Notes: a model not told the origin generated them from the letters alone. DNA of 64,000 nt from Flavobacteriaceae bacterium (GCA_046329175.1 JAXLVE010000003.1:18902-82901); one strand, 5' to 3'. Counted from the stretch's first letter, positions 16,107-37,782 are shown. Numbers and translations: made by a program.

Positions 16107-16127
16107 TTTAACCATCTCTTATATAAA

Positions 16128-16158
16128 TAAAATCCCAGAGTAAATTCTGGGATTTTAT
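16128..16158. terminator. bidirectional intrinsic terminator between convergent genes
   Basis: aatcccaga-gtaaat-tctgggatt hairpin flanked by an A-run on the 5' side and a T-run on the 3' side. Confidence 0.6.
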
Positions 16159-16191
16159 TTATATGTCTGGTTTTAAAATTAACATAACTAC

Positions 16192-17394: not shown

Positions 17395-17609
17395 TTGTTG
17401 TGAATTTGTACTTCAAAATTACGGCTTGAAAATCGAGCCGAATGTGTCAAATGTCACGTATAGCATAAGTTTTAGGCTAAAGTTTGACTGATAAATCTTT
17501 GTTGAAATTCAATAATCGGACAAATGTTAAAAGCGAAAAATAATATTATTTATAATTTGTCTAAATAAATATAGATTGTATTTTTGCTCGCGAATCAAAC
17601 AATCCTATT

Positions 17610-19838: not shown

Positions 19839-19865
19839 AAAACAGAGAAATTAAAACCAACCAAA

Positions 19866-19892
19866 AGCTCGATCCTGTGTCGGGCTTTTTTT
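19866..19892 (+). terminator. intrinsic terminator after the TonB-dependent receptor
   Basis: agctcga-tcctgtg-tcgggct hairpin followed by ttttttt. Confidence 0.55.
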
Positions 19893-20171
19893 ATTAAAAA
19901 TTCTAAAACTTTGAACGTTAAAATCATCTTAAAAAAAGAATATTTTTTTATATTTGTTCATGTAGCCTATTTCGAGATTTATCAGGTTTTTTTATAAATT
20001 TTAAAGCATATCTCAGCGATAGAAATTAAAACTTGTATAAGCCCCACAGAAATTAAGATTTTAACCCATTTTTTATTTCTGAATCCATCTGATAGAATTC
20101 AAAAGCTGCTCAGATTAACTATGAACCTATTGTTTTTTTTGACCCATCAGAAAAAACTAAGCTATGATAAC

Positions 20172-20447
20172 ATGAAAAAAAACTACATCGCATCCCTCGC
20201 GCTGGTTTTTTGCGCTCCGATTTGTTTGGCACAAGAACAAAAAAAAGAGACTAATTCCGAGTCTAAAATTCAACTGGAAAAGACCGCTGAAGAAAGCAAA
20301 GCTTCACCTCAAATTGCACCTTTACAAACTGGTTCAGCTCAGAAAAAAGTAAAAGCGGCTCCTGAAGTTTTTTATATAGTTGATGACAAAGCGGTTGATT
20401 ACAAAACATATCTGCTTCATTTACAAAAAACCAAAAATCAACATTAA
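20172..20447 (+). CDS. small secreted hypothetical protein, translationally coupled to the giant adhesin gene
   Basis: 91 aa from the internal ATG (MKKNYIASLALVFCAPICLAQ is a signal peptide). Lys/Glu/Gln-rich low-complexity middle. Its TAA stop overlaps the adhesin ATG (TAATG at 20445-20449). Confidence 0.5.
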   Translation: MKKNYIASLALVFCAPICLAQEQKKETNSESKIQLEKTAEESKASPQIAPLQTGSAQKKVKAAPEVFYIVDDKAVDYKTYLLHLQKTKNQH

Positions 20448-22840
20448 TGCATCGCGGTTTATTGCATAAACTGCTTTTTTCAATTGTCGTCTTTTTTGCT
20501 GGCATAACTTCTTTGTGGGCACAACCAACCAACGATTTGTGTAGTGCAGCTCAAGTATTGACGGTAGAGGTTGGCACCTGTACTTCTGCGTTTTACACCA
20601 ACGTAGCCGCAACAACTACCGGAAACCCTACAACTCCACCCTGTTGGAATCCGGCAACCATGAGTAATACCGTTTGGTTTTCATTTGTTGCGACCACTGC
20701 AGATGTTGAAATCGGAACCAATTTCGGAGGAACGCTCTCCAATACGCAAATTGCGGTTTATAGCGGAACTTGCGCTTCTTTGAATCTATTAGCTTGTCAA
20801 GAAGATGTCAATACTGCCGGAGGTTTACTCTTTAACAACGTGGTTTTGCACGGACTTACCGTTGGAAACACCTATTACATCGCTGTTGACGGAAATGGAA
20901 CCCAAACCGGAACTTTTGGGATCTGCATACAACAAGCTGCTCCGGTGGGACCACCGTTGCCTACTCAAGATTGTGCCGGTTCACAAACCCTTTGCAACTT
21001 AAATAACATTACAGTGCCTGATGGCCCCGGTGGCGTTGGCCCTACCCAAGAATGGCCCAGCTGTTTTGGGTCGCCCGGCGAACGTTCATCCAATTGGTAT
21101 TCATTTACTGCCGGAACTTCTGGTACACTTTGCTTTACGATTAATCCAAGCACAGACATCGATTATGATTTTGCCGTATACAATAGTTCAACAGGGTGTC
21201 CCGGAACTGAAATCGTCTGTAATTGGGATCCGGATTCTCCAGTAACAGGTTTAGGTTGTACCGGATTTCAATGTGAATCGTGCATTGCGGTAACCGCCGG
21301 ACAAACCTACACAATTTTGGTTGATCGATTTACAGCGGCTTCCACTTCTGGTTTTACTTTAGATTTTGCCGGAACTACCGCAACCATTGCCAGTCCGAAC
21401 CCAAGTTTTACTGCAACAACTGTTTGCTTGGGCTCTCCAACACAATTCACCAATACTACTCCTGGAAATTACACTTATAGCTGGAACTTTGGAGATGGCG
21501 GTACTTCCAACCTTGAAAACCCAACGCACACCTACACCACCACGGGTCCGCATACGGTTACTTTGTTGATTACAGCGGTTCCAGGTGGATGTCAAAATTC
21601 AATTTCGCAAACCGTTACGGTTAACCCAATGCCAACGGCAAGTGCCGGAACAGGCACTACTCTATGTTCTGGAGCATGCTATAATTTAAGTGGTTCTACC
21701 GATGCTGTTGGGTATTTAGGAACAACAACATTCAGCAACAATACTTCTTTTGCTATTCCGGACGGAAGTACTACCGGTGTTTTTTCACCCATCATAGTTT
21801 CGGGCATCACGCCAACAACGGTCTCCAACACAACCATTGCCTCGGTTTGTTTAGACATTTCACATACTTTTGATGGTGATTTGGATATTTTTCTACAAGC
21901 ACCCAATGGTGTTCAAATAGATTTGTCCTCTGACAATGGCGGAGGCGGAGACAATTACACAGGCACCTGTTTTAGCTCGTCGGCCACAACTTTAATTACC
22001 GCTGGAACCGTTCCTTTTAATGGGTCATATATACCTGAACAAGCCTTTAGTACTTTAAACGGATCCAACGTCAATGGAACTTGGCAATTATTTGTTCGTG
22101 ACGACACCGGAATTGACACCGGAACCATCAACAGTTGGTCGATTACTTTAAGCAATCAGGTTCCTGCATTTTCGTGGTCGCCCATAACGGCTATGACCAA
22201 TGCCAATACATTAACGCCAACCGTATGTCCTACTTCAACAACAACCTATACGCTCACGGCAACCAACGGCCCAGGATGCACCACTACAAGTTCTGTAATT
22301 ATTAACGTTAGCGGTGGTGCTACCGCGAATATTAGTTATCCAGTAGCTGCGGTTTGTACCACAGCTGGAACACAGGTGGTTACACTTACCGGAACTGGAA
22401 GCTACACCAGCGGGACCTATAGTGCGGGAGCCGGGCTTTCAATTAACACTTCATCGGGTTTGATTACTCCAAGTTCAAGCACGCCCGGCCCATACACAAT
22501 AACTTATACGATTCCCGCTTCAGGCGGATGTCCAGCCGTTACGGCAACTACAACCATAACCATTACGGCTCCACCTACTGCCGGAACTTTATCGGGAACG
22601 CAAAACATTTGTATTGGTGATTCGGTGACTTTTGGTTCTACTGTTTCAGGCGGAACTTGGACGTCTTCTAATCCTGCGGTGGCGACTATTAATGCTGCTA
22701 GTGGAGCAATCGTTGGCATTTCTGCCGGAACAGCGACCATGACCTATACTGTTCTGGGTTCGGGTGGATGTCCTAATGCTTCGGATGTGCGAACAATTAC
22801 CGTAACTGCTGTCGGCCCGGAACTCAATCCATTTGTATAG
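20447..22840 (+). CDS. adhesin fragment 1: signal peptide, two Cys-rich N-terminal domains, PKD domain, proprotein-convertase P-domain, Ig-like domain, first Big_2-like unit
   Basis: 797 aa. The signal peptide is MHRGLLHKLLFSIVVFFAGITSLWAQ. The PKD motif YSWNFGDGGTS..HTY..GPHTVTL is at about 21394-21627. The P-domain (HTFDGDLDIFLQAPNG...NGTWQLFVRDD..GTINSWSITL) is at about 21748-22155. The ORF ends in an out-of-frame stop inside a repeat unit. Confidence 0.8.
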   Translation: MHRGLLHKLLFSIVVFFAGITSLWAQPTNDLCSAAQVLTVEVGTCTSAFYTNVAATTTGNPTTPPCWNPATMSNTVWFSFVATTADVEIGTNFGGTLSNTQIAVYSGTCASLNLLACQEDVNTAGGLLFNNVVLHGLTVGNTYYIAVDGNGTQTGTFGICIQQAAPVGPPLPTQDCAGSQTLCNLNNITVPDGPGGVGPTQEWPSCFGSPGERSSNWYSFTAGTSGTLCFTINPSTDIDYDFAVYNSSTGCPGTEIVCNWDPDSPVTGLGCTGFQCESCIAVTAGQTYTILVDRFTAASTSGFTLDFAGTTATIASPNPSFTATTVCLGSPTQFTNTTPGNYTYSWNFGDGGTSNLENPTHTYTTTGPHTVTLLITAVPGGCQNSISQTVTVNPMPTASAGTGTTLCSGACYNLSGSTDAVGYLGTTTFSNNTSFAIPDGSTTGVFSPIIVSGITPTTVSNTTIASVCLDISHTFDGDLDIFLQAPNGVQIDLSSDNGGGGDNYTGTCFSSSATTLITAGTVPFNGSYIPEQAFSTLNGSNVNGTWQLFVRDDTGIDTGTINSWSITLSNQVPAFSWSPITAMTNANTLTPTVCPTSTTTYTLTATNGPGCTTTSSVIINVSGGATANISYPVAAVCTTAGTQVVTLTGTGSYTSGTYSAGAGLSINTSSGLITPSSSTPGPYTITYTIPASGGCPAVTATTTITITAPPTAGTLSGTQNICIGDSVTFGSTVSGGTWTSSNPAVATINAASGAIVGISAGTATMTYTVLGSGGCPNASDVRTITVTAVGPELNPFV

Positions 22841-23508
22841 GGGATTCTGTGACTTTTAGTTCTTCTGTTTCAGGCGGAACTTGGACGTCTTCTAATCCTG
22901 CTATTGCTACAATTAATGCTTCAACCGGAGCCATTGTCGGAGTATCGGCTGGAACAGCGACCATGACTTATACCGTTTTGGGTTCAGGTGGATGTCCCAA
23001 TGCCACAGCGACTAGAACGATTACCGTAACTGCGCCTGTGTCGGCCGGAACTTTATCCGGAACTCAAAATATTTGCATTGGTGATTCAGTTACTTTTAGT
23101 TCTTCTGTTTCAGGCGGAACTTGGACTTCTTCGAATCCTGCGGTGGCGACTATTAATGCTGCTAGTGGAGCAATCGTTGGCATTTCTGCCGGAACAGCGA
23201 CCATGACCTATACCGTTGCGGGTTCAGGCGGTTGTCCGAATGCCACGGCGACGAGAACCGTGACCGTAACCGCGCCTGTGTCGGCCGGAACTTTATCCGG
23301 AACTCAATCCATTTGTATAGGGGATTCTGTGACTTTTAGTTCTTCTGTTTCAGGCGGAACTTGGACGTCTTCTAATCCTGCAGTGGCAACCATCAATGCT
23401 TCAACTGGAGCCATTGTCGGAGTATCTGCGGGAACTGCGACCATGACCTATACTGTTCTCGGTTCGGGTGGATGTCCGAATGCTTCGGATGTTCGAACAG
23501 TAAATGTT
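22568..23508 (+). repeat. Big_2-like 240-bp tandem units, run 1 (4 units; unit 2 carries the 16-nt net deletion)
   Basis: Unit boundaries were read at 22568, 22808, 23032 and 23272. The consensus is APVSAGTLSGTQ(N/S)ICIGDSVTFSSSVSGGTWTSSNPAVATINASTGAIVGVSAGTATMTYTVLGSGGCPNATATRTVTVT. Confidence 0.85.
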
Positions 23509-23697
23509 AATAGCATTCTATCACCGGTGATCAATTGCGGAACTTCGACCACTTCATCGGTTCAATTCACTTGGACGGCTGTTAGTGGTGCTACCGGATA
23601 TAATCTCACTTATCAAATCAATGCCGGAGCGGTGACTAATGTCGGGGCCATCGGAAATGTAACTTCCCTATGCGTTCTCTTCTTTATCGCCGGGTGA
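22849..23697 (+). CDS. adhesin fragment 2 (Big_2-like units 2-4 and the start of linker A1); no signal peptide of its own
   Basis: 282 aa. This frame is open from 22777. The sequence is a direct continuation of the repeat consensus (GDSVTFSSSVSGGTWTSSNP...). Confidence 0.7.
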   Translation: MTFSSSVSGGTWTSSNPAIATINASTGAIVGVSAGTATMTYTVLGSGGCPNATATRTITVTAPVSAGTLSGTQNICIGDSVTFSSSVSGGTWTSSNPAVATINAASGAIVGISAGTATMTYTVAGSGGCPNATATRTVTVTAPVSAGTLSGTQSICIGDSVTFSSSVSGGTWTSSNPAVATINASTGAIVGVSAGTATMTYTVLGSGGCPNASDVRTVNVNSILSPVINCGTSTTSSVQFTWTAVSGATGYNLTYQINAGAVTNVGAIGNVTSLCVLFFIAG

Positions 23698-23785
23698 TGT
23701 CATTACGCGCAACACTGCCCCGACTGGGCCTGCGCCAAGTTGTTTCACTTCGAGTTCGCTTTCGTGTACAGCCAACAATTGCGTT

Positions 23786-26700
23786 TTGCCAACGGCTTCG
23801 ATTGCTTATAGTGGAAGTCCGTTCTGCACAACTCTGTCTTCAGCTCAATCGGTAACTCTGAGCGGAACCGGAAGCTACACCGGAGGAACATTCTCTGCAC
23901 CAGCAGGGCTTTCTATCAATGGTTCGAGTGGAGATATCACACCAAGCACTTCAACTCCGGGGCCGTATACGGTGACTTATACCATTTTGGGAACTGGCGG
24001 ATGTCCGAATGTGGTGGCTACAACCAGTGTCATCATTACCGCGCCTGTGTCAGCCGGAACTCTTTCCGGAACGCAATCCATTTGCGTTGGCGATTCAGTC
24101 ACTTTTAGCAGTACTGTTTCAGGCGGAACTTGGACTTCTTCTAATCCTGCAGTGGCAACCATAAATGCTTCAACTGGAGCCATTGTCGGAGTATCTGCCG
24201 GAACAGCAACCATGACCTATACTGTTCTCGGTTCGGGTGGATGTCCCAATGCCACAGCGACTAGAACCGTGACTGTAACTGCGCCGGTTTCTGCAGGAAC
24301 TTTATCCGGAACACAATCCATTTGCATCGGTGATTCCGTCACTTTTAGTAGTACTGTTTCAGGTGGAACTTGGACTTCATCCAATCCTGCAGTGGCAACC
24401 ATCAATGCTTCAACTGGAGCCATTGTCGGAGTATCTGCGGGAACTGCGACCATGACTTATACCGTTTTGGGTTCGGGCGGTTGTCCGAATGCAACAGCGA
24501 CGCGAACTATAACCGTGACTGCGCCTGTGGTAGCTGGAACTTTATCGGGAACTCAATCCATTTGTATCGGTGATTCAGTCACTTTTAGTAGTACTGTTTC
24601 AGGCGGAACTTGGACGTCTTCTAATCCTGCGGTGGCAACCATCAATGCGTCAACCGGAGCCATTGTCGGGGTGTCGGCCGGAAGCGCCACCATGACTTAT
24701 ACCGTTGTGGGTTCAGGCGGATGTCCGAATGCAACAGCGACTAGAACTATAACCGTGACTGCGCCGGTATCAGCCGGAACTTTATCCGGAACGCAAAACA
24801 TTTGTACCGGTGATTCGGTGACTTTTGGTTCTTCTGTTTTGGGCGGAACTTGGGCTTCTTCTAATCCTGCAGTGGCAACCATCAATGCGTCAACCGGAGC
24901 CATTGTCGGGGTGTCTGCCGGAACTGCGACCATGACTTATACCGTTTTGGGTTCAGGCGGTTGTCCCAATGCTTCGGATGTCCGAACGATGACAGTGAAT
25001 AGCATTCTATCGCCGGTGATCAATTGCGGAACTTCGACCACTTCATCGGTTCAATTCACTTGGGCTAGTGTTAGTGGGGCTATCGGATACAATCTCTCCT
25101 ATCAAATCAACGCTGGCGCTGTGGTGAGTGTCGGAGCCATCGGAAATGTAACTTCTTATCTTTTCTCTTCATTATCGCCGGGTGATGTCGTTAGCATAAC
25201 ACTCACCCCGACTGGGCCTGCGCCGAGTTGCTTTGCTTCGAGTTCACTCTCGTGCACAGCCAATAATTGCGTTTTACCAACGGCTTCGATTGCTTATGCA
25301 GGAAGTCCGTTCTGCGCAACTCTGTCTTCGGCTCAAGCGGTAACTTTAAGCGGAACCGGAAGCTACACCGGAGGAACTTTCTCTGCGCCAGTAGGGCTTT
25401 CCATCAATAGTTCGAGTGGTGATATCACACCAAGCACTTCAACTCCGGGGCCGTATACGGTGACTTATACCATTTTGGGAACTGGCGGATGTCCGAATGT
25501 GGTGGCTACAACCAGTGTCAGCATTACCGCGCCTGTGTCAGCCGGAACTCTTTCCGGAACGCAATCCATTTGCGTTGGTGATTCAGTTACTTTTGGCAGT
25601 ACCGTTTCAGGCGGAACTTGGACGTCTTCCAATCCTGCAGTGGCAACCATCAATGCTTCAACCGGAGCCATTGTCGGCGTATCGGCCGGAACTGCGACCA
25701 TGACCTATACCGTTGCGGGTTCAGGCGGTTGTCCCAATGCCACAGCGACTAGAACCGTGACTGTAACTGCGCCGGTTTCTGCCGGAACTTTATCGGGAAC
25801 GCAAAACATTTGCATTGGTGATTCCGTCACTTTTAGTACTACCGTTTCAGGCGGAACTTGGACTTCTTCTAATCCTGCAATCGCGACTATTAATGCGGCT
25901 AGTGGAGCCATTGTTGGTGTGTCTGCCGGAACTGCAACCATGACTTATACCGTTCTGGGTTCGGGTGGATGTCTGAATGCAACAGCAACGAGAACCGTAA
26001 CCGTAACTGCTCCTGTGTCGGCCGGAACTTTATCCGGAACTCAATCCATTTGTATAGGGGATTCTGTGACTTTTAGTTCTTCTGTTTCAGGCGGAACTTG
26101 GACGTCTTCTAATCCTGCAGTGGCAACCATCAATGCTTCAACCGGAGCCATTGTCGGGGTGTCGGCCGGAAGCGCCACCATGACGTATACCGTTCTGGGT
26201 TCGGGTGGATGTCCTAATGCTTCGGATGTGCGAACAATTACCGTAACTGCGCCGGTATCAGCCGGAACTCTATCCGGAACTCAAAATATTTGCATTGGTG
26301 ATTCAGTTACTTTTAGTTCTTCTGTTTCAGGCGGAACTTGGACGTCTTCTAATCCTGTAGTGGCAACCATCAATGCTTCAACCGGAGCCATTGTCGGGGT
26401 GTCGGCCGGAACTGCGACCATGACCTATACCGTTGCGGGTTCAGGCGGTTGTCCCAATGCAACAGCAACGAGAACCGTAACCGTAACTGCGCCGGTATCA
26501 GCCGGAACTCTATCCGGAACTCAAAATATTTGCATTGGTGATTCAGTTACTTTTAGTTCTTCTGTTTCAGGTGGAACTTGGACGTCTTCTAATCCTGCAG
26601 TAGCAACCATCAATGCTTCAACTGGAGCCATTGTCGGAGTATCTGCCGGAACAGCAACCATGACGTATACCGTTCTGGGTTCGGGTGGTTGTCCCAATGC

Positions 26701-29700
26701 AACGGCAACGAGAACCGTAACCGTAACCGCGCCGGTATCTGCCGGAACTTTATCGGGAACGCAAAACATTTGTATTGGTGATTCGGTGACTTTTGGTTCT
26801 TCTGTTTCAGGCGGAACTTGGACGTCTTCTAATCCTGTAGTGGCAACCATAAATGCTTCAACCGGAGCCATTGTCGGTGTGTCTGCTGGAAGCGCCACCA
26901 TGACTTATACCGTTCTGGGTTCGGGTGGTTGTCCCAATGCAACGGCAACGAGAACCGTAACCGTAACTGCGCCGGTATCAGCCGGAACTCTATCCGGAAC
27001 TCAAAATATTTGCATCGGTGATTCAGTTACTTTTAGTTCTTCTGTTTTAGGCGGAACTTGGACTTCTTCCAATCCTGCGGTGGCAACCATCAATGCTGCT
27101 AGTGGAGCCATTGTTGGTGTGTCTGCCGGAACTGCGACCATGACCTATACTGTTCTGGGTTCGGGTGGATGTCCGAATGCTTCGGATGTTCGAACAGTAA
27201 ATGTTAATAGCATTCTATCACCGGTGATCAATTGCGGAACTTCGACCACTTCATCGGTTCAATTCACTTGGACGGCTGTTAGTGGTGCTACCGGATATAA
27301 TCTCACTTATCAAATCAATGCCGGAGCGGTGACTAATGTCGGGGCCATCGGAAATGTAACTTCCTATGCGTTCTCTTCTTTATCGCCGGGTGATGTCGTT
27401 AGCATAACACTCACCCCGACTGGGCCTGCGCCAAGTTGTTTCACTTCGAGTTCGCTTTCGTGTACAGCCAACAATTGCGTTTTGCCAACGGCTTCGATTG
27501 CTTATAGTGGAAGTCCGTTCTGCACAACTCTGTCTTCAGCTCAATCGGTAACTCTGAGCGGAACCGGAAGCTACACCGGAGGAACATTCTCTGCACCAGC
27601 AGGGCTTTCTATCAATGGTTCGAGTGGAGATATCACACCAAGCACTTCAACTCCGGGGCCGTATACGGTGACTTATACCATTTTGGGAACCGGCGGTTGT
27701 CCGAATGTGGTGGCTACGACTAGTGTAACCATTACCGCACCGGTATCAGCCGGAACACTCTCTGGAATACAAAATATTTGTATCGGAGATTCCGTCACTT
27801 TTGGCAGTACTATTTCAGGCGGAACTTGGACATCATCAAATCCTGCAGTGGCGACTATTAATGCTGCTAGTGGAGCCATTGTCGGCGTATCGGCCGGAAC
27901 TGCGACCATGACTTATACCGTTCTGGGTTCAGGCGGTTGTCCGAATGCGACAGCGACAAGAACGGTGACGGTGACAACGCCTGTTTCTGCAGGGACTTTA
28001 TCCGGAAGTCAATCCATTTGTATTGGTGATTCTGTCACTTTTGGAAGTTCTGTTTCAGGCGGAACTTGGACTTCTTCTAATCCTGCAGTGGCAACCATAA
28101 ATGCTTCAACTGGAGCCATTGTCGGTGTGTCTGCTGGAACAGCAACCATGACTTATACCGTTGTGGGTTCGGGTGGTTGTCCCAATGCAACGGCGACTAG
28201 AACTATAACCGTGACTGCGCCGGTATCAGCCGGAACTTTATCCGGAACTCAATCCATTTGTATCGGTGATTCAGTCACTTTTAGTAGTACTGTTTCAGGC
28301 GGAACTTGGACTTCTTCTAATCCTGCGGTGGCAACCATCAATACTGCTAGTGGAGCCATTGTTGGTGTGTCTGCCGGAACAGCGACCATGACCTATACTG
28401 TTCTCGGTTCGGGTGGATGTCCGAATGCTTCGGATGTCCGAACGATGACAGTGAATAGCATTCTATCGCCGGTAATCAATTGTGGAACTTCAACTACTTC
28501 ATCGGTTCAGTTCACTTGGGCTAGTGTTAGTGGGGCTATCGGATACAATCTCTCCTATCAAATCAACGCCGGAGCGGTGACTAATGTCGGGGCCATCGGA
28601 AATGTAACTTCTTATTTATTTTCTTCATTATCGCCGGGTGATGTCGTTAGCATAACTTTAATCCCGACTGGGCCTGCGCCAAGTTGCTTTGCATCGAGTT
28701 CACTTTCGTGTACAGCCAATAATTGCGTTTTGCCAACGGCTTCTATTGCTTATGCAGGAAGTCCGTTCTGCGCTTCTTTGACTTCTGCTCAAGCGGTAAC
28801 TCTAACCGGAACCGGAAGCTACACCGGAGGAACTTTCTCTGCGCCAGTAGGGCTTTCCATCAATAGTTCGAGTGGTGATATCACACCAAGCACTTCAACT
28901 CCGGGGCCGTATACGGTGACTTATACCATTTTGGGAACTGGCGGATGTCCGAATGTGGTGGCTACAACCAGTGTCATCATTACCGCGCCTGTGTCAGCCG
29001 GAACACTCTCTGGAATACAAAATATTTGTATTGGTGATTCTGTGCCTTTTTCTTCTTCTGTTTTGGGTGGAACTTGGACGTCTTCTAATCCTGCAGTGGC
29101 AACCATCAATGCTTCAACCGGAGCCATTGTCGGAGTATCTGCCGGAACAGCAACCATGACCTATACTGTTCTCGGTTCGGGTGGATGTCCCAATGCCACA
29201 GCGACTAGAACCGTAACCGTAACTGCTCCTGTGTCGGCCGGAACTTTATCCGGAACTCAATCCATTTGTATAGGGGATTCTGTGACTTTTAGTTCTTCTG
29301 TTTCAGGCGGAACTTGGACGTCTTCTAATCCTGCAGTGGCAACCATCAATGCTTCAACCGGATCCATTGTCGGGGTGTCGGCCGGAAGCGCCACCATGAC
29401 GTATACCGTTCTGGGTTCGGGTGGATGTCCTAATGCTTCGGATGTGCGAACAATTACCTTAACTGCGCCGGTATCAGCCGGAACTCTATCCGGAACTCAA
29501 AATATTTGCATTGGTGATTCAGTTACTTTTAGTTCTTCTGTTTCAGGCGGAACTTGGACGTCTTCTAATCCTGCTATTGCTACAATTAATGCTTCAACCG
29601 GAGCCATTGTCGGAGTATCGGCTGGAACAGCGACCATGACTTATACCGTTTTGGGTTCAGGTGGATGTCCCAATGCCACAGCGACTAGAACGATTACCGT

Positions 29701-32700
29701 AACTGCGCCTGTGTCAGCCGGAACTCTTTCCGGAACGCAATCCATTTGCGTTGGCGATTCAGTCACTTTTAGTTCTTCTGTTTCAGGCGGAACTTGGACT
29801 TCTTCTAATCCTGCAGTGGCAACCATAAATGCTTCAACTGGAGCCATTGTCGGAGTATCTGCCGGAACAGCAACCATGACGTATACCGTTTTGGGTTCAG
29901 GTGGTTGTCCGAATGCTTCGGATGTGCGAACTATAACAGTGACCGCACCGGTGTCTGCCGGAACTTTATCCGGAACTCAATCCATTTGTATAGGGGATTC
30001 TGTGACTTTTAGTTCTTCTGTTTCAGGCGGAACTTGGACGTCTTCTAATCCTGTAGTGGCAACCATCAATGCTTCAACCGGAGCCATTGTCGGTGTGTCT
30101 GCTGGAAGCGCCACCATGACTTATACCGTTCTGGGTTCGGGTGGTTGTCCCAATGCAACGGCAACGAGAACCGTAACCGTAACCGCGCCGGTATCTGCCG
30201 GAACTTTATCGGGAACGCAAAACATTTGTATTGGTGATTCGGTGACTTTTGGTTCTTCTGTTTCAGGCGGAACTTGGACTTCTTCTAATCCTGCGGTGGC
30301 AACCATCAATACTGCTAGTGGAGCCATTGTCGGCGTATCGGCCGGTAGTGCTACCATGACTTATACCGTTCTGGGTTCGGGTGGATGTCCGAATGCCTCG
30401 GCGACGAGAACCGTGACCGTAACCGCGCCGGTTTCTGCCGGAACTTTATCCGGAACTCAAAATATTTGCATTGGTGATTCCGTCACTTTTAGTAGTACCG
30501 TTTCAGGCGGAACTTGGACTTCTTCTAATCCTGCTATTGCTACAATTAATGCTTCAACCGGAGCCATTGTCGGAGTATCGGCTGGAACAGCGACCATGAC
30601 TTATACCGTTTTGGGTTCAGGTGGATGTCCCAATGCCACAGCGACTAGAACTATAACCGTAACTGCACCGGTTTCAGCCGGAACTTTATCCGGAACACAA
30701 AATATTTGTATCGGTGATTCAGTTACTTTTAGTTCTTCTGTTTCAGGTGGAACTTGGACTTCATCTAATCCTGCAATCGCGACCATTAATGCGGCTAGTG
30801 GAGCCATTGTTGGTGTGTCTGCCGGAGGTGCAACCATGACTTATACCGTTGCGGGTTCAGGTGGTTGTCCCAATGCAACAGCGACGCGAACTATAACCGT
30901 AACTGCGCCGGTATCAGCTGGAACTTTATCCGGAACACAAAATATTTGTATCGGCGATTCAGTCACTTTTTCTTCTTCGGTTTTAGGAGGAACTTGGATT
31001 TCATCGAATCCAGCGGTGGCAACCATCAATACTGCTAGTGGAGCGATTGTCGGGGTATCTGCCGGTAGTGCTACCATGACCTATACCGTTTTGGGTTCAG
31101 GCGGATGTCCCAATGCAACAGCGACTAGAACCGTGACCGTAACTGCGCCAGTCTCTGCCGGAACTTTATCCGGAACTCAAAATATTTGCATTGGTGATTC
31201 AGTTACTTTTAGTTCTTCTGTTTCAGGCGGAACTTGGACTTCTTCTAATACCGCCGTGGCGACTATTAATGCTTCAACCGGAGCCATTGTCGGAGTAACT
31301 GCTGGAACTGCCACCATGACGTATACCGTTCTGGGTTCGGGTGGATGTCCTAATGCTTCGGATGTGCGAACAATTACCGTAACTGCGCCGGTATCAGCCG
31401 GAACTTTATCCGGAACTCAAAATATTTGCATTGGTGATTCAGTTACTTTTAGTTCTTCTGTTTCAGGCGGAACTTGGACGTCTTCTAATCCTGCGGTGGC
31501 GACTATTAATGCTGCTAGTGGAGCAATCGTTGGCATTTCTGCCGGAACAGCGACCATGACCTATACTGTTCTGGGTTCGGGTGGATGTCCTAATGCTTCG
31601 GATGTGCGAACAATTACCGTAACTGCGCCGGTATCAGCCGGAACTCTATCCGGAACTCAAAATATTTGCATTGGTGATTCAGTTACTTTTAGTTCTTCTG
31701 TTTCAGGCGGAACTTGGACGTCTTCTAATCCTGCAGTGGCAACCATCAATGCTTCAACCGGAGCCATTGTCGGGGTGTCGGCCGGAACAGCAACCATGAC
31801 TTATACCGTTCTGGGTTCGGGTGGATGTCTGAATGCAACAGCAACGAGAACCGTAACCGTAACTGCTCCTGTGTCGGCCGGAACTTTATCCGGAACTCAA
31901 AATATTTGCATTGGTGATTCAGTTACTTTTAGTTCTTCTGTTTCAGGTGGAACTTGGACTTCTTCGAATCCTGCGGTGGCGACTATTAATGCTGCTAGTG
32001 GAGCAATCGTTGGCATTTCTGCCGGAACAGCGACCATGACCTATACTGTTCTGGGTTCGGGCGGTTGTCCGAATGCCACGGCGACGAGAACCGTGACCGT
32101 AACCGCGCCGGTTTCTGCTGGAACACTCTCTGGAACGCAGTCCGTTTGTATCGGAGATTCGGTCACTTTTAGTTCTTCTGTTTCAGGCGGAACTTGGACG
32201 TCTTCTAATCCTGCTATTGCTACAATTAATGCTTCAACCGGAGCCATTGTCGGAGTATCGGCTGGAACAGCGACCATGACTTATACCGTTTTGGGTTCAG
32301 GTGGATGTCCCAATGCCACAGCGACTAGAACTATAACCGTAACTGCACCGGTTTCAGCCGGAACTTTATCTGGAACTCAATCCATTTGTATTGGTGATTC
32401 CGTCCCTTTTGGTTCTTCTGTTTCAGGTGGAACTTGGACTTCATCTAATCCTGCAATCGCGACCATTAATGCGGCTAGTGGAGCCATTGTTGGTGTGTCT
32501 GCCGGAGGTGCAACCATGACTTATACCGTTGCGGGTTCAGGCGGATGTCCGAATGCCACAGCAACGCGGACTATAACCATAAAGCCATCTCCGCAAATAC
32601 TAAATCCAAGTACTTATTCAATTTGTACCGGCGAAAACATCACCATAAACCTCACTGCTAATATTCCGGGCACAACTTTTACATGGTTGGTGACGCAAAA

Positions 32701-33601
32701 CAATGTAAGTGGCGCGAACATCGGTTCCGGAAATACCATTTCAGCTACCCTAACCAACAATAATGGCAATGCCGGGTCAGTCGTTTATGGTGTGATTCCG
32801 ATGGCCAATGGCTGCGAGGGAAATCCGTTTTACATTACCGTGCGCGTCTGGCCATTGCCTAAACCACAGTTGAACGACGGTTTTGTGTGTCTGAACATTT
32901 TGACCAACCAAGCGGTGCAAAGCCATTTGTTGCAAACCGGATTAGATAATTCAAACTACACTTTTGATTGGTATTTTAACGGAACGCACATCAGCGGAGC
33001 CAACAGCAATAATTATGAAGCCGAGCAAGCCGGAACCTATTCAGTGGTTGCAACCAACGTTCATACGAATTGCGTTTCTGAGGAAGTATTTGCCACGGTC
33101 ACCTCATCGTATGTGGCCAATAGTTTTGTAGCCGAACCTAGCGAAGCTTTTGCCGACGCGCCATACATCATTGTGCATACTCCGGCAGGCACCGGTCCGT
33201 TTTTGTATCAATTGGATTTTGGACCGCTCCAAAATTCGAATACTTTTTACAATGTAAGCAGCGGTTTGCATACCATTCGCGTCAAAGATGAAGTAGGTTG
33301 TACGGATTTACTCGGGCAAGTTTGGATTTTGAATTACCCGAAATTCTTTACCCCGAACAACGATACCTATAACGACACATGGAATATTCCCGATTTGGCC
33401 AATCAGCAAAATGCGCACATTTACATTTTTGATCGATACGAAAAATTCATCAAAGAAATTAGTCCGCAAGGCGAAGGTTGGGATGGAACTCACAACGGAT
33501 ATCCGCTGCCTTCGACCGACTATTGGTTCTCGGTAGATTATACCGATCCGAACACGTTTGTACGCAGAAATTTTAAAGCGCATTTTTCTTTGAAACGCTA
33601 A
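23786..33601 (+). CDS. adhesin fragment 3: 29 Big_2-like units, 3.7 linker modules, PKD-like and Ig-like C-terminal domains, T9SS type-B sorting domain
   Basis: 3271 aa. This frame is open from 23663, so the called TTG start is internal to a domain. The C-terminus FFTPNNDTYNDTWNI...IYIFDRYEKFI...WDGTHNGYPLPSTDYWF matches the gliding-motility-associated/T9SS type-B CTD pattern. Confidence 0.85.
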   Translation: MPTASIAYSGSPFCTTLSSAQSVTLSGTGSYTGGTFSAPAGLSINGSSGDITPSTSTPGPYTVTYTILGTGGCPNVVATTSVIITAPVSAGTLSGTQSICVGDSVTFSSTVSGGTWTSSNPAVATINASTGAIVGVSAGTATMTYTVLGSGGCPNATATRTVTVTAPVSAGTLSGTQSICIGDSVTFSSTVSGGTWTSSNPAVATINASTGAIVGVSAGTATMTYTVLGSGGCPNATATRTITVTAPVVAGTLSGTQSICIGDSVTFSSTVSGGTWTSSNPAVATINASTGAIVGVSAGSATMTYTVVGSGGCPNATATRTITVTAPVSAGTLSGTQNICTGDSVTFGSSVLGGTWASSNPAVATINASTGAIVGVSAGTATMTYTVLGSGGCPNASDVRTMTVNSILSPVINCGTSTTSSVQFTWASVSGAIGYNLSYQINAGAVVSVGAIGNVTSYLFSSLSPGDVVSITLTPTGPAPSCFASSSLSCTANNCVLPTASIAYAGSPFCATLSSAQAVTLSGTGSYTGGTFSAPVGLSINSSSGDITPSTSTPGPYTVTYTILGTGGCPNVVATTSVSITAPVSAGTLSGTQSICVGDSVTFGSTVSGGTWTSSNPAVATINASTGAIVGVSAGTATMTYTVAGSGGCPNATATRTVTVTAPVSAGTLSGTQNICIGDSVTFSTTVSGGTWTSSNPAIATINAASGAIVGVSAGTATMTYTVLGSGGCLNATATRTVTVTAPVSAGTLSGTQSICIGDSVTFSSSVSGGTWTSSNPAVATINASTGAIVGVSAGSATMTYTVLGSGGCPNASDVRTITVTAPVSAGTLSGTQNICIGDSVTFSSSVSGGTWTSSNPVVATINASTGAIVGVSAGTATMTYTVAGSGGCPNATATRTVTVTAPVSAGTLSGTQNICIGDSVTFSSSVSGGTWTSSNPAVATINASTGAIVGVSAGTATMTYTVLGSGGCPNATATRTVTVTAPVSAGTLSGTQNICIGDSVTFGSSVSGGTWTSSNPVVATINASTGAIVGVSAGSATMTYTVLGSGGCPNATATRTVTVTAPVSAGTLSGTQNICIGDSVTFSSSVLGGTWTSSNPAVATINAASGAIVGVSAGTATMTYTVLGSGGCPNASDVRTVNVNSILSPVINCGTSTTSSVQFTWTAVSGATGYNLTYQINAGAVTNVGAIGNVTSYAFSSLSPGDVVSITLTPTGPAPSCFTSSSLSCTANNCVLPTASIAYSGSPFCTTLSSAQSVTLSGTGSYTGGTFSAPAGLSINGSSGDITPSTSTPGPYTVTYTILGTGGCPNVVATTSVTITAPVSAGTLSGIQNICIGDSVTFGSTISGGTWTSSNPAVATINAASGAIVGVSAGTATMTYTVLGSGGCPNATATRTVTVTTPVSAGTLSGSQSICIGDSVTFGSSVSGGTWTSSNPAVATINASTGAIVGVSAGTATMTYTVVGSGGCPNATATRTITVTAPVSAGTLSGTQSICIGDSVTFSSTVSGGTWTSSNPAVATINTASGAIVGVSAGTATMTYTVLGSGGCPNASDVRTMTVNSILSPVINCGTSTTSSVQFTWASVSGAIGYNLSYQINAGAVTNVGAIGNVTSYLFSSLSPGDVVSITLIPTGPAPSCFASSSLSCTANNCVLPTASIAYAGSPFCASLTSAQAVTLTGTGSYTGGTFSAPVGLSINSSSGDITPSTSTPGPYTVTYTILGTGGCPNVVATTSVIITAPVSAGTLSGIQNICIGDSVPFSSSVLGGTWTSSNPAVATINASTGAIVGVSAGTATMTYTVLGSGGCPNATATRTVTVTAPVSAGTLSGTQSICIGDSVTFSSSVSGGTWTSSNPAVATINASTGSIVGVSAGSATMTYTVLGSGGCPNASDVRTITLTAPVSAGTLSGTQNICIGDSVTFSSSVSGGTWTSSNPAIATINASTGAIVGVSAGTATMTYTVLGSGGCPNATATRTITVTAPVSAGTLSGTQSICVGDSVTFSSSVSGGTWTSSNPAVATINASTGAIVGVSAGTATMTYTVLGSGGCPNASDVRTITVTAPVSAGTLSGTQSICIGDSVTFSSSVSGGTWTSSNPVVATINASTGAIVGVSAGSATMTYTVLGSGGCPNATATRTVTVTAPVSAGTLSGTQNICIGDSVTFGSSVSGGTWTSSNPAVATINTASGAIVGVSAGSATMTYTVLGSGGCPNASATRTVTVTAPVSAGTLSGTQNICIGDSVTFSSTVSGGTWTSSNPAIATINASTGAIVGVSAGTATMTYTVLGSGGCPNATATRTITVTAPVSAGTLSGTQNICIGDSVTFSSSVSGGTWTSSNPAIATINAASGAIVGVSAGGATMTYTVAGSGGCPNATATRTITVTAPVSAGTLSGTQNICIGDSVTFSSSVLGGTWISSNPAVATINTASGAIVGVSAGSATMTYTVLGSGGCPNATATRTVTVTAPVSAGTLSGTQNICIGDSVTFSSSVSGGTWTSSNTAVATINASTGAIVGVTAGTATMTYTVLGSGGCPNASDVRTITVTAPVSAGTLSGTQNICIGDSVTFSSSVSGGTWTSSNPAVATINAASGAIVGISAGTATMTYTVLGSGGCPNASDVRTITVTAPVSAGTLSGTQNICIGDSVTFSSSVSGGTWTSSNPAVATINASTGAIVGVSAGTATMTYTVLGSGGCLNATATRTVTVTAPVSAGTLSGTQNICIGDSVTFSSSVSGGTWTSSNPAVATINAASGAIVGISAGTATMTYTVLGSGGCPNATATRTVTVTAPVSAGTLSGTQSVCIGDSVTFSSSVSGGTWTSSNPAIATINASTGAIVGVSAGTATMTYTVLGSGGCPNATATRTITVTAPVSAGTLSGTQSICIGDSVPFGSSVSGGTWTSSNPAIATINAASGAIVGVSAGGATMTYTVAGSGGCPNATATRTITIKPSPQILNPSTYSICTGENITINLTANIPGTTFTWLVTQNNVSGANIGSGNTISATLTNNNGNAGSVVYGVIPMANGCEGNPFYITVRVWPLPKPQLNDGFVCLNILTNQAVQSHLLQTGLDNSNYTFDWYFNGTHISGANSNNYEAEQAGTYSVVATNVHTNCVSEEVFATVTSSYVANSFVAEPSEAFADAPYIIVHTPAGTGPFLYQLDFGPLQNSNTFYNVSSGLHTIRVKDEVGCTDLLGQVWILNYPKFFTPNNDTYNDTWNIPDLANQQNAHIYIFDRYEKFIKEISPQGEGWDGTHNGYPLPSTDYWFSVDYTDPNTFVRRNFKAHFSLKR
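24041..24997 (+). repeat. Big_2-like 240-bp tandem units, run 2 (4 units)
   Basis: Unit starts (gcgcc(t/g)gt...) at 24041, 24281, 24521 and 24761. The last unit ends ...ASDVRTMTV before linker B1. Confidence 0.85.
25529..27205 (+). repeat. Big_2-like 240-bp tandem units, run 3 (7 units)
   Basis: 1677 nt, which is 7 x 240 minus 3. It is bounded by linker B1 (24998-25528) and linker A2 (27206-27736). Confidence 0.85.
27737..28453 (+). repeat. Big_2-like 240-bp tandem units, run 4 (3 units)
   Basis: 717 nt, which is 3 x 240 minus 3. It is bounded by linker A2 and linker B2 (28454-28984). Confidence 0.85.
28985..32584 (+). repeat. Big_2-like 240-bp tandem units, run 5 (15 units)
   Basis: 3600 nt, which is 15 x 240. 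Boundaries were checked at 29225, 29465 and 32345. The run ends where ...TRTITIKPSPQ begins. Confidence 0.85.
33328..33598 (+). other. T9SS type-B (gliding-motility-associated) C-terminal sorting domain of the giant adhesin
   Basis: LNYPKFFTPNNDTYNDTWNIPDL....IYIFDRYEKFIKEI.....GWDGTHNGYPLPSTDYWFSVDY... Confidence 0.75.
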
Positions 33602-33723: not shown

Positions 33724-34959
33724 TTATTTTTTGAGTACTCCGAGCACCGTTCCTAGCAATACTTGAGCGCCGGTGGCCAAATCTTCGTAGGATGAATACT
33801 CGAGCGGATTGTGACTGATGCCGTCTTTGCAGCGTACGAAAATCATTCCGTAATCGCAGGCGTAGGACAAAGCAAGCGCATCGTGAAAAGGCCCGCTCAT
33901 GAGTTCGGGCGCATCTAAATTGAGTTTTTCGCACTCTGCATGAATGATTTTTTTGATCCAATCGGCGCAATAACGCGGCTCGCTGTTGGTGTCTTCAGAA
34001 ATAGAATATTCGAGTTTGTGTTTTTGACAGATGGCATCGATGCGATCGCGTAGTTGTTTTTCGTAGCGATTCCGACGATCTAGGTCAATGTCGCGCAAAT
34101 CAACGGTCATCTCAACTTCTTCGGCAATGATGTTGCGCGAAGCCGGAAAGACTTTCATGGTTCCCACGGTTCCCACAGTAGGATTGCCCGGAACTTGAGT
34201 TGCGATTTCATGCAAAGCGACAGTAATTTCAGCGGCACCCAACAGAGCATCGCGACGCATTGGCATTGGAACTGAGCCCGCGTGACCCGCCATTCCTTTG
34301 AGTTTGACCGTCCACCAAAGCGGACCGGAAATGCCCGAGACAACACCGATGGGTTTTTGGGCCACGTCTAGAACCGGACCTTGTTCGATGTGTAATTCGA
34401 GGAAGCAAAAAATACTGCCTTGCGGATACTCAGAGGCTTTGAATTGAGTGATGTCACAGCCAAAATCTTGGAGTGCTTGGGAGCGTGTGATGCCGTCTTT
34501 GTCAGCGCGGTTGAGTTCGCCTTCTTCGAGTTTGCCTAAAATACCGCGCGAACCAAAAAGGCCTTTGTTGAATCGCCAGCCTTCTTCGTCGGCGAAAGAA
34601 ATGACTTCGATGGAGCGCTCGGGTTGCAGACCGTTTTCGTGTAAAGTGCGGACTACTTCAATCGCGCACAACACGCCGGCAACTCCGTCAAAACGACCAC
34701 CATAGGGTTGTGAGTCAAGATGTGAGCCCATCATCAGTACAGGCAAGTCGGGATTTTTGCCTTCGAGTCTGCCGATTAAATTGCCGAAATTGTCGATGCG
34801 CACCGACATACCGGCTTGTTTCATCCAAGAACCGGCCAGTTCAAAACCTTGCTTTTCAAGCGCAGTGTGCGCCGGGCGACAGGTTCCGGTTTCGCCGATT
34901 TTGCCGATTTCGCTCATGGCTTCAAAATAACTTTGAAGACGGGAACTGTTTATTTTCAT
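33724..34959 (-). CDS. M20-family Zn-dependent amidohydrolase (N-carbamoyl-L-amino-acid / beta-ureidopropionate / allantoate amidohydrolase type)
   Basis: 411 aa. The motifs GSHLDSQPYGGRFDGVAGV and ..FADEEG.. are typical of the AmaB/AllC/PydC branch of peptidase family M20. Confidence 0.8.
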   Translation of the reverse strand: MKINSSRLQSYFEAMSEIGKIGETGTCRPAHTALEKQGFELAGSWMKQAGMSVRIDNFGNLIGRLEGKNPDLPVLMMGSHLDSQPYGGRFDGVAGVLCAIEVVRTLHENGLQPERSIEVISFADEEGWRFNKGLFGSRGILGKLEEGELNRADKDGITRSQALQDFGCDITQFKASEYPQGSIFCFLELHIEQGPVLDVAQKPIGVVSGISGPLWWTVKLKGMAGHAGSVPMPMRRDALLGAAEITVALHEIATQVPGNPTVGTVGTMKVFPASRNIIAEEVEMTVDLRDIDLDRRNRYEKQLRDRIDAICQKHKLEYSISEDTNSEPRYCADWIKKIIHAECEKLNLDAPELMSGPFHDALALSYACDYGMIFVRCKDGISHNPLEYSSYEDLATGAQVLLGTVLGVLKK

Positions 34960-34983
34960 AGAGTTATTGTTGTTTGATGAATG

Positions 34984-35073
34984 CCCGCGTGAGGGATGGG
35001 AGCGGCTATCCTTGGGTGCCGGTGTCCGGCGCTCAAGATAATAGCGAAAAGCCCGACCCGCAGGTGCACGCCC
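34984..35073. repeat. REP-like structured intergenic repeat, subfamily B (copy 3)
   Basis: cgcgtgagggatgggagcggctatccttgggtgccgg-tgt-ccggcgctcaagataatagcgaaaagcccgacccgcaggtgcacgccc. Lies 3' of the preA stop, inside the operon. Confidence 0.6.
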
Positions 35074-35078
35074 TCATT

Positions 35079-36347
35079 TTAATGATCGTTAAGCGGTAAG
35101 CCTTGCGCCTGCCAATCTTTCCAGTTGATGTATTCGGGAGCGACGCGTTGAACTTGCATAGTGATGCAATTGTCAACCGGACAGACCAATTTGCAAAGGT
35201 TGCAACCCACGCATTCTTTTTCGTTGATGGTGTAGTTGTTATACGGCACGCCGCGCTCGATGTTGATGGATTGATGTGAGGTGTCTTCGCAGGCAATATA
35301 GCACAATCCGCAGTGAATACACTTGTCTTGATCGATGTTGGCTACGTGGTGGTAGTTGATGTCGAGGTCTTCCCAATGCGTGATTTTCTCGACGGATTTA
35401 CCAATAAAGTCGGTGGTTTTTTGATAGCCTTTTTCGTCCATCCAGTTGCTGAGGCCTTCGCACAAATCTTCTACTATGCGGAAACCATGCGTCATGGCAG
35501 CGGTACAAACCTGAACCGAAGTAGCGCCCAAAAGCATGAATTCGGCGGCGTCTTTCCAAGTGCTCACGCCTCCGATGCCCGAAACCGGAACACGACTCGC
35601 AATCGGATCTTGTGAAATGGTGGTGAGCATTTTGAGCGCAATCGGTTTGACGGCCGGCCCGCAATAACCGCCAAAAACACTTTGTCCGGCCACATACGGA
35701 TTGGGTACTAAAGTATCGAGGTCAATTCCGGTGACACTTTGGATGGTATTGATCAGACTCAGTGCGTTGGTTCCTCCTTCGACGGCTGCGCGTCCGGTGG
35801 GAACGACTGAATGCACATTCGGAGTCAGTTTGGTGATGACGGGAATCGTGGCTTTTTCCATGACCCATTCGACGACCATTTTGGCGATTTCTGGATCCTG
35901 ACCCACGGCAGCGCCCATTCCGCGCTCGGTCATTCCGTGGGGACAGCCAAAATTGAGCTCAAAGCCCATAGCACCGGCATCTTCGCATTTTTTGATGAGT
36001 TCGTGCCAAGCAGTTCGATTGTTGTCGGCCATGAGCGAAACAATCATGGCGCGGTCTGGGAACATTTTGACGACTTCGGTAATTTCGCGTAAGTTGATCT
36101 CGAGCGGTCTGTCGCTGATGAGCTCGATGTTGTTGAAGCCCATGATGCGTTTTTTTCCGTAATCAACAGACGAATAGCGCGAAGAAACGTTTTTGACTTG
36201 TGAGCCCAACGTTTTCCAAACCACTCCGCCCCAGCCGGCTTCGAAAGCACGGACAACGTTGATTTTTTTATCGGTGGGCGGCGCACTGGCCAGCCAAAAT
36301 GGATTCGGTGATTTGATTCCTAAAAAATCGGTTGATAAATCTGCCAT
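35079..36347 (-). CDS. preA: NAD-dependent dihydropyrimidine dehydrogenase subunit PreA (DHODH-like TIM barrel plus 2x[4Fe-4S])
   Basis: 422 aa. DHOD/DPD-like core (ELNFGCPHGM, GGVSTW) and a C-terminal CIHCGLCYIACED / CVGCNLCKLVCP ferredoxin pair. Confidence 0.85.
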   Translation of the reverse strand: MADLSTDFLGIKSPNPFWLASAPPTDKKINVVRAFEAGWGGVVWKTLGSQVKNVSSRYSSVDYGKKRIMGFNNIELISDRPLEINLREITEVVKMFPDRAMIVSLMADNNRTAWHELIKKCEDAGAMGFELNFGCPHGMTERGMGAAVGQDPEIAKMVVEWVMEKATIPVITKLTPNVHSVVPTGRAAVEGGTNALSLINTIQSVTGIDLDTLVPNPYVAGQSVFGGYCGPAVKPIALKMLTTISQDPIASRVPVSGIGGVSTWKDAAEFMLLGATSVQVCTAAMTHGFRIVEDLCEGLSNWMDEKGYQKTTDFIGKSVEKITHWEDLDINYHHVANIDQDKCIHCGLCYIACEDTSHQSINIERGVPYNNYTINEKECVGCNLCKLVCPVDNCITMQVQRVAPEYINWKDWQAQGLPLNDH

Positions 36348-36359
36348 ATACTTTGTCTG

Positions 36360-37745: not shown

Positions 37746-37782
37746 AAATCTTTTTCGTTTATTGGTTTGGTTAATTTTGTCT

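Follow-up and report, generated by a model that had tools for sequence, protein, structure and literature searches.

A giant, repeat-built gene for a predicted T9SS type-B surface fibre, split by two frame breaks in a Flavobacterium-related metagenome-assembled genome

The stretch of DNA analysed here (the window) comprises 64,000 nucleotides of a 197,655-bp metagenome-assembled genome (MAG) contig deposited in GenBank as 'Flavobacteriaceae bacterium' (JAXLVE010000003.1, positions 18902-82901), and it contains a giant repeat-built locus that lies on the plus strand from an ATG at 20447 to a stop codon at 33599-33601. The organism is a relative of Flavobacterium, and the protein is uncharacterised. 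We regard 20447-33601 as a single gene, conceptually encoding 4389 aa (~428 kDa), whose product would be exported by type IX secretion (through the T9SS) and anchored at the Flavobacterium cell surface as a fibre- or adhesin-like protein, and we put the probability of this reading at roughly 80%. The original prediction had given the same strand, start and stop, which our analysis bears out, and it had also described one continuous coding sequence, which the assembly does not contain. Two frame breaks, missed at that stage, divide the locus into open reading frames (ORFs) of 797, 282 and 3271 aa, and two edits, the addition of 16 nt and the removal of 1 nt, turn it into a single 4389-aa ORF without an internal stop.

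In this repaired form, the protein begins with a Sec signal peptide (residues 1-25, 20447..20521; MHRGLLHKLLFSIVVFFAGITSLWA, then Q), which is apparent in the translation and forms an N-terminal helix of residues 3-23 in an AlphaFold2 (AF2) model. Two tandem Cys-rich beta-jelly-roll domains follow (20528..21382), identified by Pfam, AF2, and Foldseek; the first matches PF23759 GBD_T9SS_assoc over residues 28-147 (8.9e-7, 29.6 bits, cut-off 27), and the second matches the same model weakly (E 0.034). After these come a PKD domain (residues 318-392, 21398..21622; PF18911 1e-13, PF00801 4e-9) and a proprotein-convertase P-domain (residues 466-568, 21842..22150; PF01483 P_proprotein 2.3e-11, 44.1 bits, cut-off 21). 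At the other end of the protein, a PKD-like domain (PKD_5, 32618..32860; PF19406 5.6e-17) follows the last repeat run, and weak Ig/PKD-like sequence with weak matches to PF19081, PF16820, and PF13895 leads to a T9SS type-B C-terminal sorting domain (CTD), which together with the stop codon occupies 33332..33601. The CTD matches TIGR04131 (1.6e-33, 114.7 bits, cut-off 35) over model positions 2-85 of 85, ending at the final residue, and also PF13585 CHU_C (1.9e-11, 44.4 bits, cut-off 27). The domain order proposed earlier, type-B CTD included, is therefore recovered by Pfam and NCBIfam models: GBD_T9SS_assoc, PKD, P_proprotein, Big_2/Ig units with He_PIG heads, PKD_5, and CHU_C/TIGR04131.

Between the P-domain and PKD_5 lies a stalk of five modules, each made of one He_PIG-type Ig-like domain of ~86 aa (the head) and then n Big_2-like units of 80 aa (n = 4, 4, 7, 3, 15), with four joints of 90 aa (the linkers). 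Aligned translations place head 1 at 22310..22567 and heads 2-5 at 23783-24040, 25271-25528, 27479-27736, and 28727-28984, all on the plus strand; PF05345 He_PIG matches head 3 alone at 2.6e-5 and, with a longer segment, at 3.1e-12. On the same strand, run 1 (four units, the second lacking 16 nt at its 5' end) occupies 22568..23511, run 2 (4 units) 24041..25000, run 3 (7 units) 25529..27208, run 4 (3 units) 27737..28456, and run 5 (15 units) 28985..32584. The assignment of these units to Big_2 holds, as PF02368 reaches 49.7 bits (gathering score 22.8) with four stretches in a four-unit segment, and a related Ig model, PF25354, outscores it with 77.5 bits. Each unit has two Cys. The repaired protein also holds exactly 33 D-[ST]-[AILVMT] motifs, the Bacteroidota O-glycosylation sequon, of which there is one per unit (GDSV) and zero elsewhere. 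By paralogue alignment, linker 1 lies at 23512..23782 and linkers 2-4 at 25001-25270, 27209-27478, and 28457-28726, again on the plus strand. They had been called Fn3-like from the start, a label that neither Pfam fn3 nor any other Pfam model returns even at E<=10; a profile of 12 linker sequences, searched against the PDB, does match two FN3con designs, with E-values of 3.7e-4 and 9.3e-4, as well as an FN3 chimera (0.0076), and the linker has seven strands in the AF2 model. The FN3-like character of the linkers is in our view weakly supported by this profile and model.

The count of 33 units of 240 nt in five runs of 4, 4, 7, 3, and 15, as first proposed, was reproduced in three ways: by Tandem Repeats Finder (five arrays, period 240, 0% indels), by the motif anchor GGCGGAACTTGGAC (SGGTW codons), and by reading the unit translations directly. 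Anchor spacing within runs is exactly 240 nt save for one 224-nt interval in run 1, and the spacing from run to run is 768 nt in three cases and 769 nt in one. The AF2 model of a unit, linker, head, and unit (336 aa, 24-row alignment) is entirely beta, with beta-sandwiches, and has a mean pLDDT of 85.5. Its best Foldseek matches in the PDB are four fragments (stem and base) of the Aureispira sp. CCB-QB grappling-hook protein GhpA, itself built of repeats (E 2.4e-10 to 2.6e-7, TMq 0.46-0.51, identity 15-16%), and the next are NUP210, cadherins, a Big_2-CBM56 structure (7r3t, 26% identity), and FN3/Ig strings. Because the C-terminus matches TIGR04131 at 1.6e-33, the units match Big_2, and this four-domain model is all-beta and nearest to Ig-repeat fibre proteins, the prediction of a giant T9SS type-B surface protein with a rod-like body of Ig-like domains is supported by both sequence and model.

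As deposited, frame 0 is open from 20447 to 22840 (797 aa) and ends with the stop codon at 22838-22840. Frame +2 is open from 22777 to 23697 only and contains an annotated ORF at 22849-23697 (282 aa, GTG start), and frame 0 is open again past 23660, where the annotated ORF runs from a TTG at 23786 to 33601 (3271 aa). There are 13 frame-0 stops between 22838 and 23660. The first lesion (22808..22824, plus strand) lies at the junction of the first and second units of run 1 (r1u1/r1u2), which in alignment is 16 nt short (gaps of 5 + 11 nt) relative to every paralogous junction, with an anchor spacing of 224 rather than 240 nt; the resulting frame shift leads to the stop at 22838-22840. The second lesion (23666..23717, plus strand), found by paralogue alignment within linker 1, consists of an extra C at 23666, which brings the reading back to frame 0, and a scrambled 16-nt patch at 23702-23717. 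This patch is 36 nt downstream of the extra C, acts as a local +1/-1 pair, and changes the conserved VVSITLT to VITRNTA. The 534-nt tract around the second lesion (23461-23994) is otherwise 100% identical to linker 3 and head 4, and a search for a template of the patch found that the sequence of 23702-23719 occurs nowhere else in the window. Because the 16-nt deficit and the +1 insertion split the gene into three ORFs, this exact sequence is unable to yield the fibre. The signal peptide (in the 797-aa ORF) is cut off from the CTD (in the 3271-aa ORF) by the two breaks, and both are part of the same polypeptide only in the repaired 4389-aa reading.

GenBank lists the locus as three coding sequences (CDSs), MFN8273672.1, MFN8273673.1, and MFN8273674.1, which taken at face value would be three separately functioning genes for a 797-aa PKD protein, a 282-aa hypothetical protein, and a 3271-aa type-B CTD protein. 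Apart from this listing as separate CDSs, the evidence points the other way, and we consider such an arrangement extremely improbable. The second and third ORFs start in mid-domain, from GTG and TTG, and have no signal peptide, so that the 3271-aa protein would be unable to reach the T9SS, while the first ends in frameshift-derived junk (VGPELNPFV) and has no CTD. Orthologues of the locus are single ORFs. We instead read one gene because two edits join all three pieces into one frame, because the out-of-frame middle piece still codes canonical units (the 282-aa piece codes perfect units r1u2-r1u4 and the start of linker 1), and because two relatives, L001 (MAG SZAS-72) and L002 (Flavobacterium sp. 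CYK-55), are in frame through the same r1u1/r1u2 junction. Programmed frameshifting or phase variation was also considered and rejected, as there is no simple-sequence tract at either lesion and 13 frame-0 stops lie between them.

Whether the lesions exist in the organism is a separate question from the unity of the gene. We give an even chance to a repeat-associated artefact of assembly or polishing, which puts it ahead, by a small margin, of a true inactivation of very recent date. The latter, a true pseudogene from which the cell would obtain no surface fibre and no more than a periplasmic fragment of 797 aa that lacks the CTD, is a serious contender at somewhat less than even odds, and a consensus drawn from a mixed population appears unlikely. 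The frame breaks are present in the deposited sequence and annotated as three CDSs, the deficit of 5 + 11 nt is unlike a homopolymer-type read error, and the three flanking genes align over their full length to L001 with no frame break. The ~40 other window ORFs that were scanned are all intact, which indicates generally good base accuracy and speaks for a real lesion. Genes for large surface proteins are costly and often lost, which we also counted in favour of a pseudogene. Set against this is the distribution of the damage: five indel events are confined to patches of 25 nt and 52 nt that flank a clean 850-nt segment, and they include a compensated +1/-1 pair within 11 nt in a tract otherwise identical to its paralogue, a pattern that is unlike independent mutations. 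Both the 2.4 kb upstream and the 9.9 kb downstream are free of damage. As 13 kb hold no further lesion, and neither the 9.8-kb downstream frame nor any of the out-of-frame units shows a blemish, any inactivation would have to be extremely recent. An artefact is also favoured by the undamaged state of the same position in the close relatives L001 and L002 and by the homologue in a nanopore-based MAG (L013), which is likewise frame-broken; the intactness of the other scanned genes was counted on this side as well. In that nanopore-derived Flavobacterium MAG, the homologue lies at 9938-20228; its open frame stops at 18904, and the C-terminus with the CTD turns up further downstream, at 19491-20228. 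Looking up the exact 797-aa protein returned no independent assembly of the same strain, and a pattern laid over the first lesion, in its lesion or canonical form, had no match in metagenome contigs. Protein-based scans gave nothing above 87% identity in GTDB genomes or 83% in metagenome contigs.

The units themselves were compared pairwise over codons 12-80 (528 pairs). Mean identity is 0.84 at the DNA level (0.76-0.99) and 0.89 at the protein level, and only 7 of the 528 pairs reach at least 95% DNA identity, which overturns the earlier description of most units as nearly identical DNA. Near-identical repeats would be highly recombinogenic, but the median longest in-register exact run shared by units here is only 32 nt; the longest exact repeat in the array, at 277 nt, is between linker/head copies. 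The proportion of synonymous differences (pS) among units is 0.39 and that of nonsynonymous differences (pN) is 0.07, giving a dN/dS of ~0.13, and variation affects 50 of 69 third positions compared with 38 of 138 first and second positions. The units are under purifying selection. The variation is mosaic: in a four-gamete test, all four combinations were present in 39% of informative site pairs no more than 10 nt apart and in 68-83% of more distant pairs, a signal to which recurrent mutation at near-saturated synonymous sites could contribute. At 46 of 69 informative sites, both alleles were found as well among just seven units of L001, with zero fixed differences, and unit identity is 0.83-0.85 within a genome and 0.78-0.80 between genomes. 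Units of the window could not be clearly paired, as one-to-one orthologues, with those of L001 or L002 (top cross-genome identity 0.86), which is not decisive for concerted evolution because the giant gene itself is only 83-89% identical to that of L001 at the DNA level. In our reading, the array is old and under purifying selection, and short conversion tracts have shuffled its variants; it does not stem from a recent burst of identical copies. The array has a G+C content of 0.49-0.51, compared with ~0.38-0.46 across most of the remaining window, where a few non-repeat blocks reach 0.47-0.51; we rejected this as evidence of transfer, since a composition rich in Thr, Ser, Gly, and Ala accounts for it. 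Minus-strand antisense ORFs of 78-126 aa recur in the repeats (22504-22740, 23977-24213, and 26521-26901), and we dismissed them as genes, as they are most likely by-products of the repeat codon composition.

The N-terminal 648 aa match a protein family of Flavobacterium and other Bacteroidota with the same tip domains, and orthologues were found at the same chromosomal position in related Flavobacterium genomes. These have the modular design in common and differ in the number and type of units and in total length. Among the closest homologous loci in GTDB species-representative genomes, 16 of 19 have an open frame that runs into a contig end inside the gene; assemblies evidently break in the repeats. 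L001 is a very close relative, whose genes next to the locus match those of the window at 96-98% protein identity and 93-95% DNA identity, and it has the same grammar of heads, Big_2 runs, and linkers, all in frame. Run 1 has four units in the window, six in L001, and three in L002, each in frame. The metagenome contigs L063 and L064, each 72% identical to the window, carry the same gene family at 10001-15211 and 9926-17557, respectively. Their first module consists of another kind of unit, 94 aa long (PNAGTDGSV.VCDSS...GGVWTRSSG...), of which L063 has 2 and L064 has 7, and a Big_2-like second module follows. The expectation that length changes in whole-unit steps is supported by both sets of counts, all of which stay in frame. 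The different unit in the first module also means that unit types have been swapped between modules, and the O-glycosylation sequon is missing from the equivalent units of both contigs. The protein of L064 is complete at 2543 aa with two modules only; its N-terminus is 72% and its C-terminus, CTD included, 57% identical to the window, and the locus is syntenic, with the same small upstream ORF, a downstream M20 hydrolase that is 86% identical, and further metabolic genes beyond it. The complete proteins of two further relatives, L019 and L016 (F. silvisoli), measure 1764 aa and 3324 aa, and another (P0003) has 1040 aa with a single unit and may be a collapsed assembly. From these comparisons, we infer that the length and composition of the predicted stalk vary among relatives through gain and loss of whole units and whole modules.

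The tip is diverging fast. Over codons 1-400, which cover the jelly rolls and the PKD domain (window 20447-21650, L001 10001-11200), pS relative to L001 is 0.55-0.67, two to three times the value of the flanks, with a dN/dS of ~0.09. Elsewhere, pS is 0.21-0.25 in the flanking genes, 0.14 in the small upstream ORF, and 0.23-0.36 in the giant gene past codon ~400-500. This suggests that the tip was replaced by a divergent allele rather than shaped by local positive selection. A more ambitious proposal is that the locus is a cassette-type hypervariable surface-fibre system of freshwater Flavobacterium, in which tip alleles are exchanged between close relatives and the stalk is rebuilt from interchangeable modules and unit types. 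The units, mosaic in the four-gamete test and sharing polymorphisms with L001, would form a recombining population whose DNA is deliberately heterogeneous and whose protein is constant, and the lesions in the first module would be a real 'off' state that gene conversion from sibling units can repair, a repeat-templated reversible switch, with the fibre perhaps bundled like GhpA. We consider this speculative and improbable.

If the gene is intact, its product would be exported by Sec and its type-B CTD then recognised by the T9SS. PorP-like proteins are known to anchor type-B cargo (PMC9143113), and here a PorP/SprF-like protein encoded elsewhere in the genome would hold the C-terminus at the outer membrane. 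GhpA measures 240 nm for 5898 aa (bioRxiv 10.1101/2024.01.29.577165); scaled from this, the ~45-50 beta-sandwich domains of our protein would form a rod on the order of 150 nm. Such a rod would hold out its jelly-roll tip, which resembles a lectin- or collagen-binding module, at a great distance from the cell, while purifying selection would keep the unit proteins alike as their DNA diverged and became mosaic. The AF2 model of the tip (residues 1-320, pLDDT 84.3) consists of the N-terminal helix and two jelly rolls, and its top Foldseek matches are the tandem collagen-binding domains of ColG (5iku, 4.7e-10), botulinum HA70/HA3, SID1, and tandem CBM22. Based on this model, the jelly-roll pair is a putative ligand-binding module at the distal tip. 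A T9SS in the host would fit its kinship with Flavobacterium and two cargo genes with a type-A CTD (PF18962, Por_Secre_tail) that were found in the window, encoding an M1 peptidase (11862-13835) and a reprolysin/CUB metalloprotease (56660-58843); the core T9SS genes lie outside it.

Several observations weigh against our reading of the locus as one gene for an anchored surface adhesin. Sequencing errors do not typically take the form of a 16-nt deletion, and elsewhere the contig looks accurate, so the lesions may be real and the gene dead in the population. No gene for a PorP/SprF-like or PorE-like protein adjoins the locus or occurs among the ORFs of at least 150 aa scanned in the 64-kb window, and the anchor is therefore hypothetical and must be encoded elsewhere. 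The structural matches of the tip have low TM-scores (0.2-0.3) and are uninformative on its ligand, and the 'adhesin' label derives from domain content. For the comparison genomes, most of the copy numbers derive from short-read assemblies, in which repeats can collapse.

The nearest known counterparts differ in how much they share with this protein. SprB, the gliding adhesin of Flavobacterium johnsoniae, is a surface protein from the same genus that shares with ours its giant size, its many repeats, a Sec signal peptide, and a TIGR04131 CTD, and anchorage through a PorP/SprF-like protein is expected here as it is for SprB. The original prediction had placed the gene in the SprB class, which holds in the loose sense of a giant repeat-bearing type-B cargo. 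That it is an SprB orthologue, a mobile adhesin propelled along the cell surface in gliding motility, is very unlikely: giant size, repeats, and a type-B CTD are as in SprB (PMC9143113), but no segment type that was scanned has a PF13573 SprB repeat at E<=0.01, there is no sprC-, sprD-, or sprF-type neighbour, and the 64-kb window contains no PorP/SprF gene. In contrast to SprB, the stalk is Big_2-like with He_PIG and FN3-like domains in a two-level hierarchy, and the combination of jelly rolls, PKD, and P-domain in the tip marks a different family, one that is conserved at this locus across Flavobacterium.

GhpA (PDB 9fly, 9flu, 9flv, 9flw) is the best structural match for the stalk and has the same order of parts, with tens of slightly varying, Cys-containing Ig-like repeats before the CTD. 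It forms heptamers, and PorP/PorE homologues are encoded downstream of it (bioRxiv 10.1101/2024.01.29.577165). A comparable multimeric appendage here, a parallel bundle with a rigid, disulfide-braced, glycosylated stem and a distal capture module, would fit the top four matches of the stalk model, the two Cys and one D-S-V sequon per unit, and the shared logic of signal peptide, N-terminal functional module, long Ig-repeat stem, and T9SS CTD described in the same study. We nonetheless find it unlikely, as identity amounts to just 15-16% and a match to GhpA is to be expected of any string of Ig domains, no ghpB/ghpC (PorP/PorE) homologues lie downstream, the tip fold is unlike the GhpA hook, and oligomerisation is not inferable from sequence.

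Other giant adhesins resemble the stalk in part. Tandem Big_2 adhesins share the Pfam Big_2 match; in intimin/invasin, the Leptospira Lig proteins, and Salmonella SiiE, Big_2 rods hold a distal binding domain off the cell. Unlike these proteins, which use type V or type I routes, the present one would rely on other secretion and anchoring, and its units have a conserved Cys pair and score higher with PF25354 than with PF02368. Gram-positive repeat adhesins of the alpha C/Rib, Esp, and Bap type are also built from whole-domain tandem repeats whose number differs between strains. In those adhesins, the repeats hardly differ in DNA and their number shifts easily, whereas the units here, at 84% DNA identity and a pS of 0.39, are old or scrambled copies under purifying selection. 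Large CHU_C proteins, such as those of Cytophaga hutchinsonii and others with a 'gliding motility-associated C-terminal domain', are similar in having PF13585 after PKD-like/Ig_7-like domains, but the tip and the He_PIG/Big_2/FN3 grammar are specific to the Flavobacterium family found here. By its CTD and overall logic, the protein is best grouped with the giant T9SS type-B surface proteins, and by analogy it would work like SprB or GhpA in outline.

This is a new, uncharacterised protein of an already known kind, whose parts are catalogued in Pfam and NCBIfam and whose sequence was already deposited, though mis-split: automated annotation divided the gene into three unrelated-looking proteins. 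Because 16 of the 19 closest loci end at a contig edge inside the gene, the family as a whole is systematically truncated or mis-annotated in databases. The two-level module grammar across Flavobacterium, the units diverged in DNA and conserved in protein, and the fast-diverging tip are noteworthy without being surprising, and general knowledge of T9SS cargo is unchanged by the finding. If intact in the organism, the protein would be among the longest predicted surface fibres of freshwater Flavobacterium and a good natural example of how the stalk length and tip specificity of a T9SS adhesin diversify, through unit and module changes, replacement of tip alleles, and conservation of protein while DNA diverges.

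The giant gene is flanked by a small secreted ORF, a TonB receptor gene, and pyrimidine-catabolism genes. The small ORF (108 aa, 20121..20447, plus strand), taken from the ORF list, has a likely start at M18 with a signal peptide (MKKNYIASLALVFCAPICLA), and its stop overlaps the ATG of the giant gene by 1 nt. A terminator-like hairpin at 19863-19889 lies between it and the upstream TonB receptor gene, and the small ORF and the giant gene probably form an operon. A small ORF is located directly 5' of the homologue in L001-L004, L007, L016, L019, and L064, with similarity detected in L001-L004, L007, and L016, and a C-terminal motif (APE[VI]FY..DD..V...YL.HL) is common to the window and L016. 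It has no Pfam match. Judging from this recurrence, it is a predicted conserved partner of the giant gene.

Directly downstream and convergent, on the minus strand at 33724-44543, is what looks like a reductive pyrimidine/beta-alanine catabolism cluster. Its genes encode an M20 hydrolase, a DHO-dehydrogenase-like protein with 4Fe-4S domains, a Fer4_20/Pyr_redox subunit, a CN_hydrolase, an amidohydrolase, a cytosine/uracil-type permease, a class-III aminotransferase, and an aldehyde dehydrogenase. At 44826-46262 lies a gene whose product belongs to the CotH kinase family (PF08757, 6.2e-40) and which looks unusual in this context. The window also contains a tRNA-Asn at 15338-15412 and five intergenic Flavo-1 RNA motifs (RF01705), all above the gathering score, at 40-117, 5179-5257, 34978-35062, 42972-43050, and 60303-60378.

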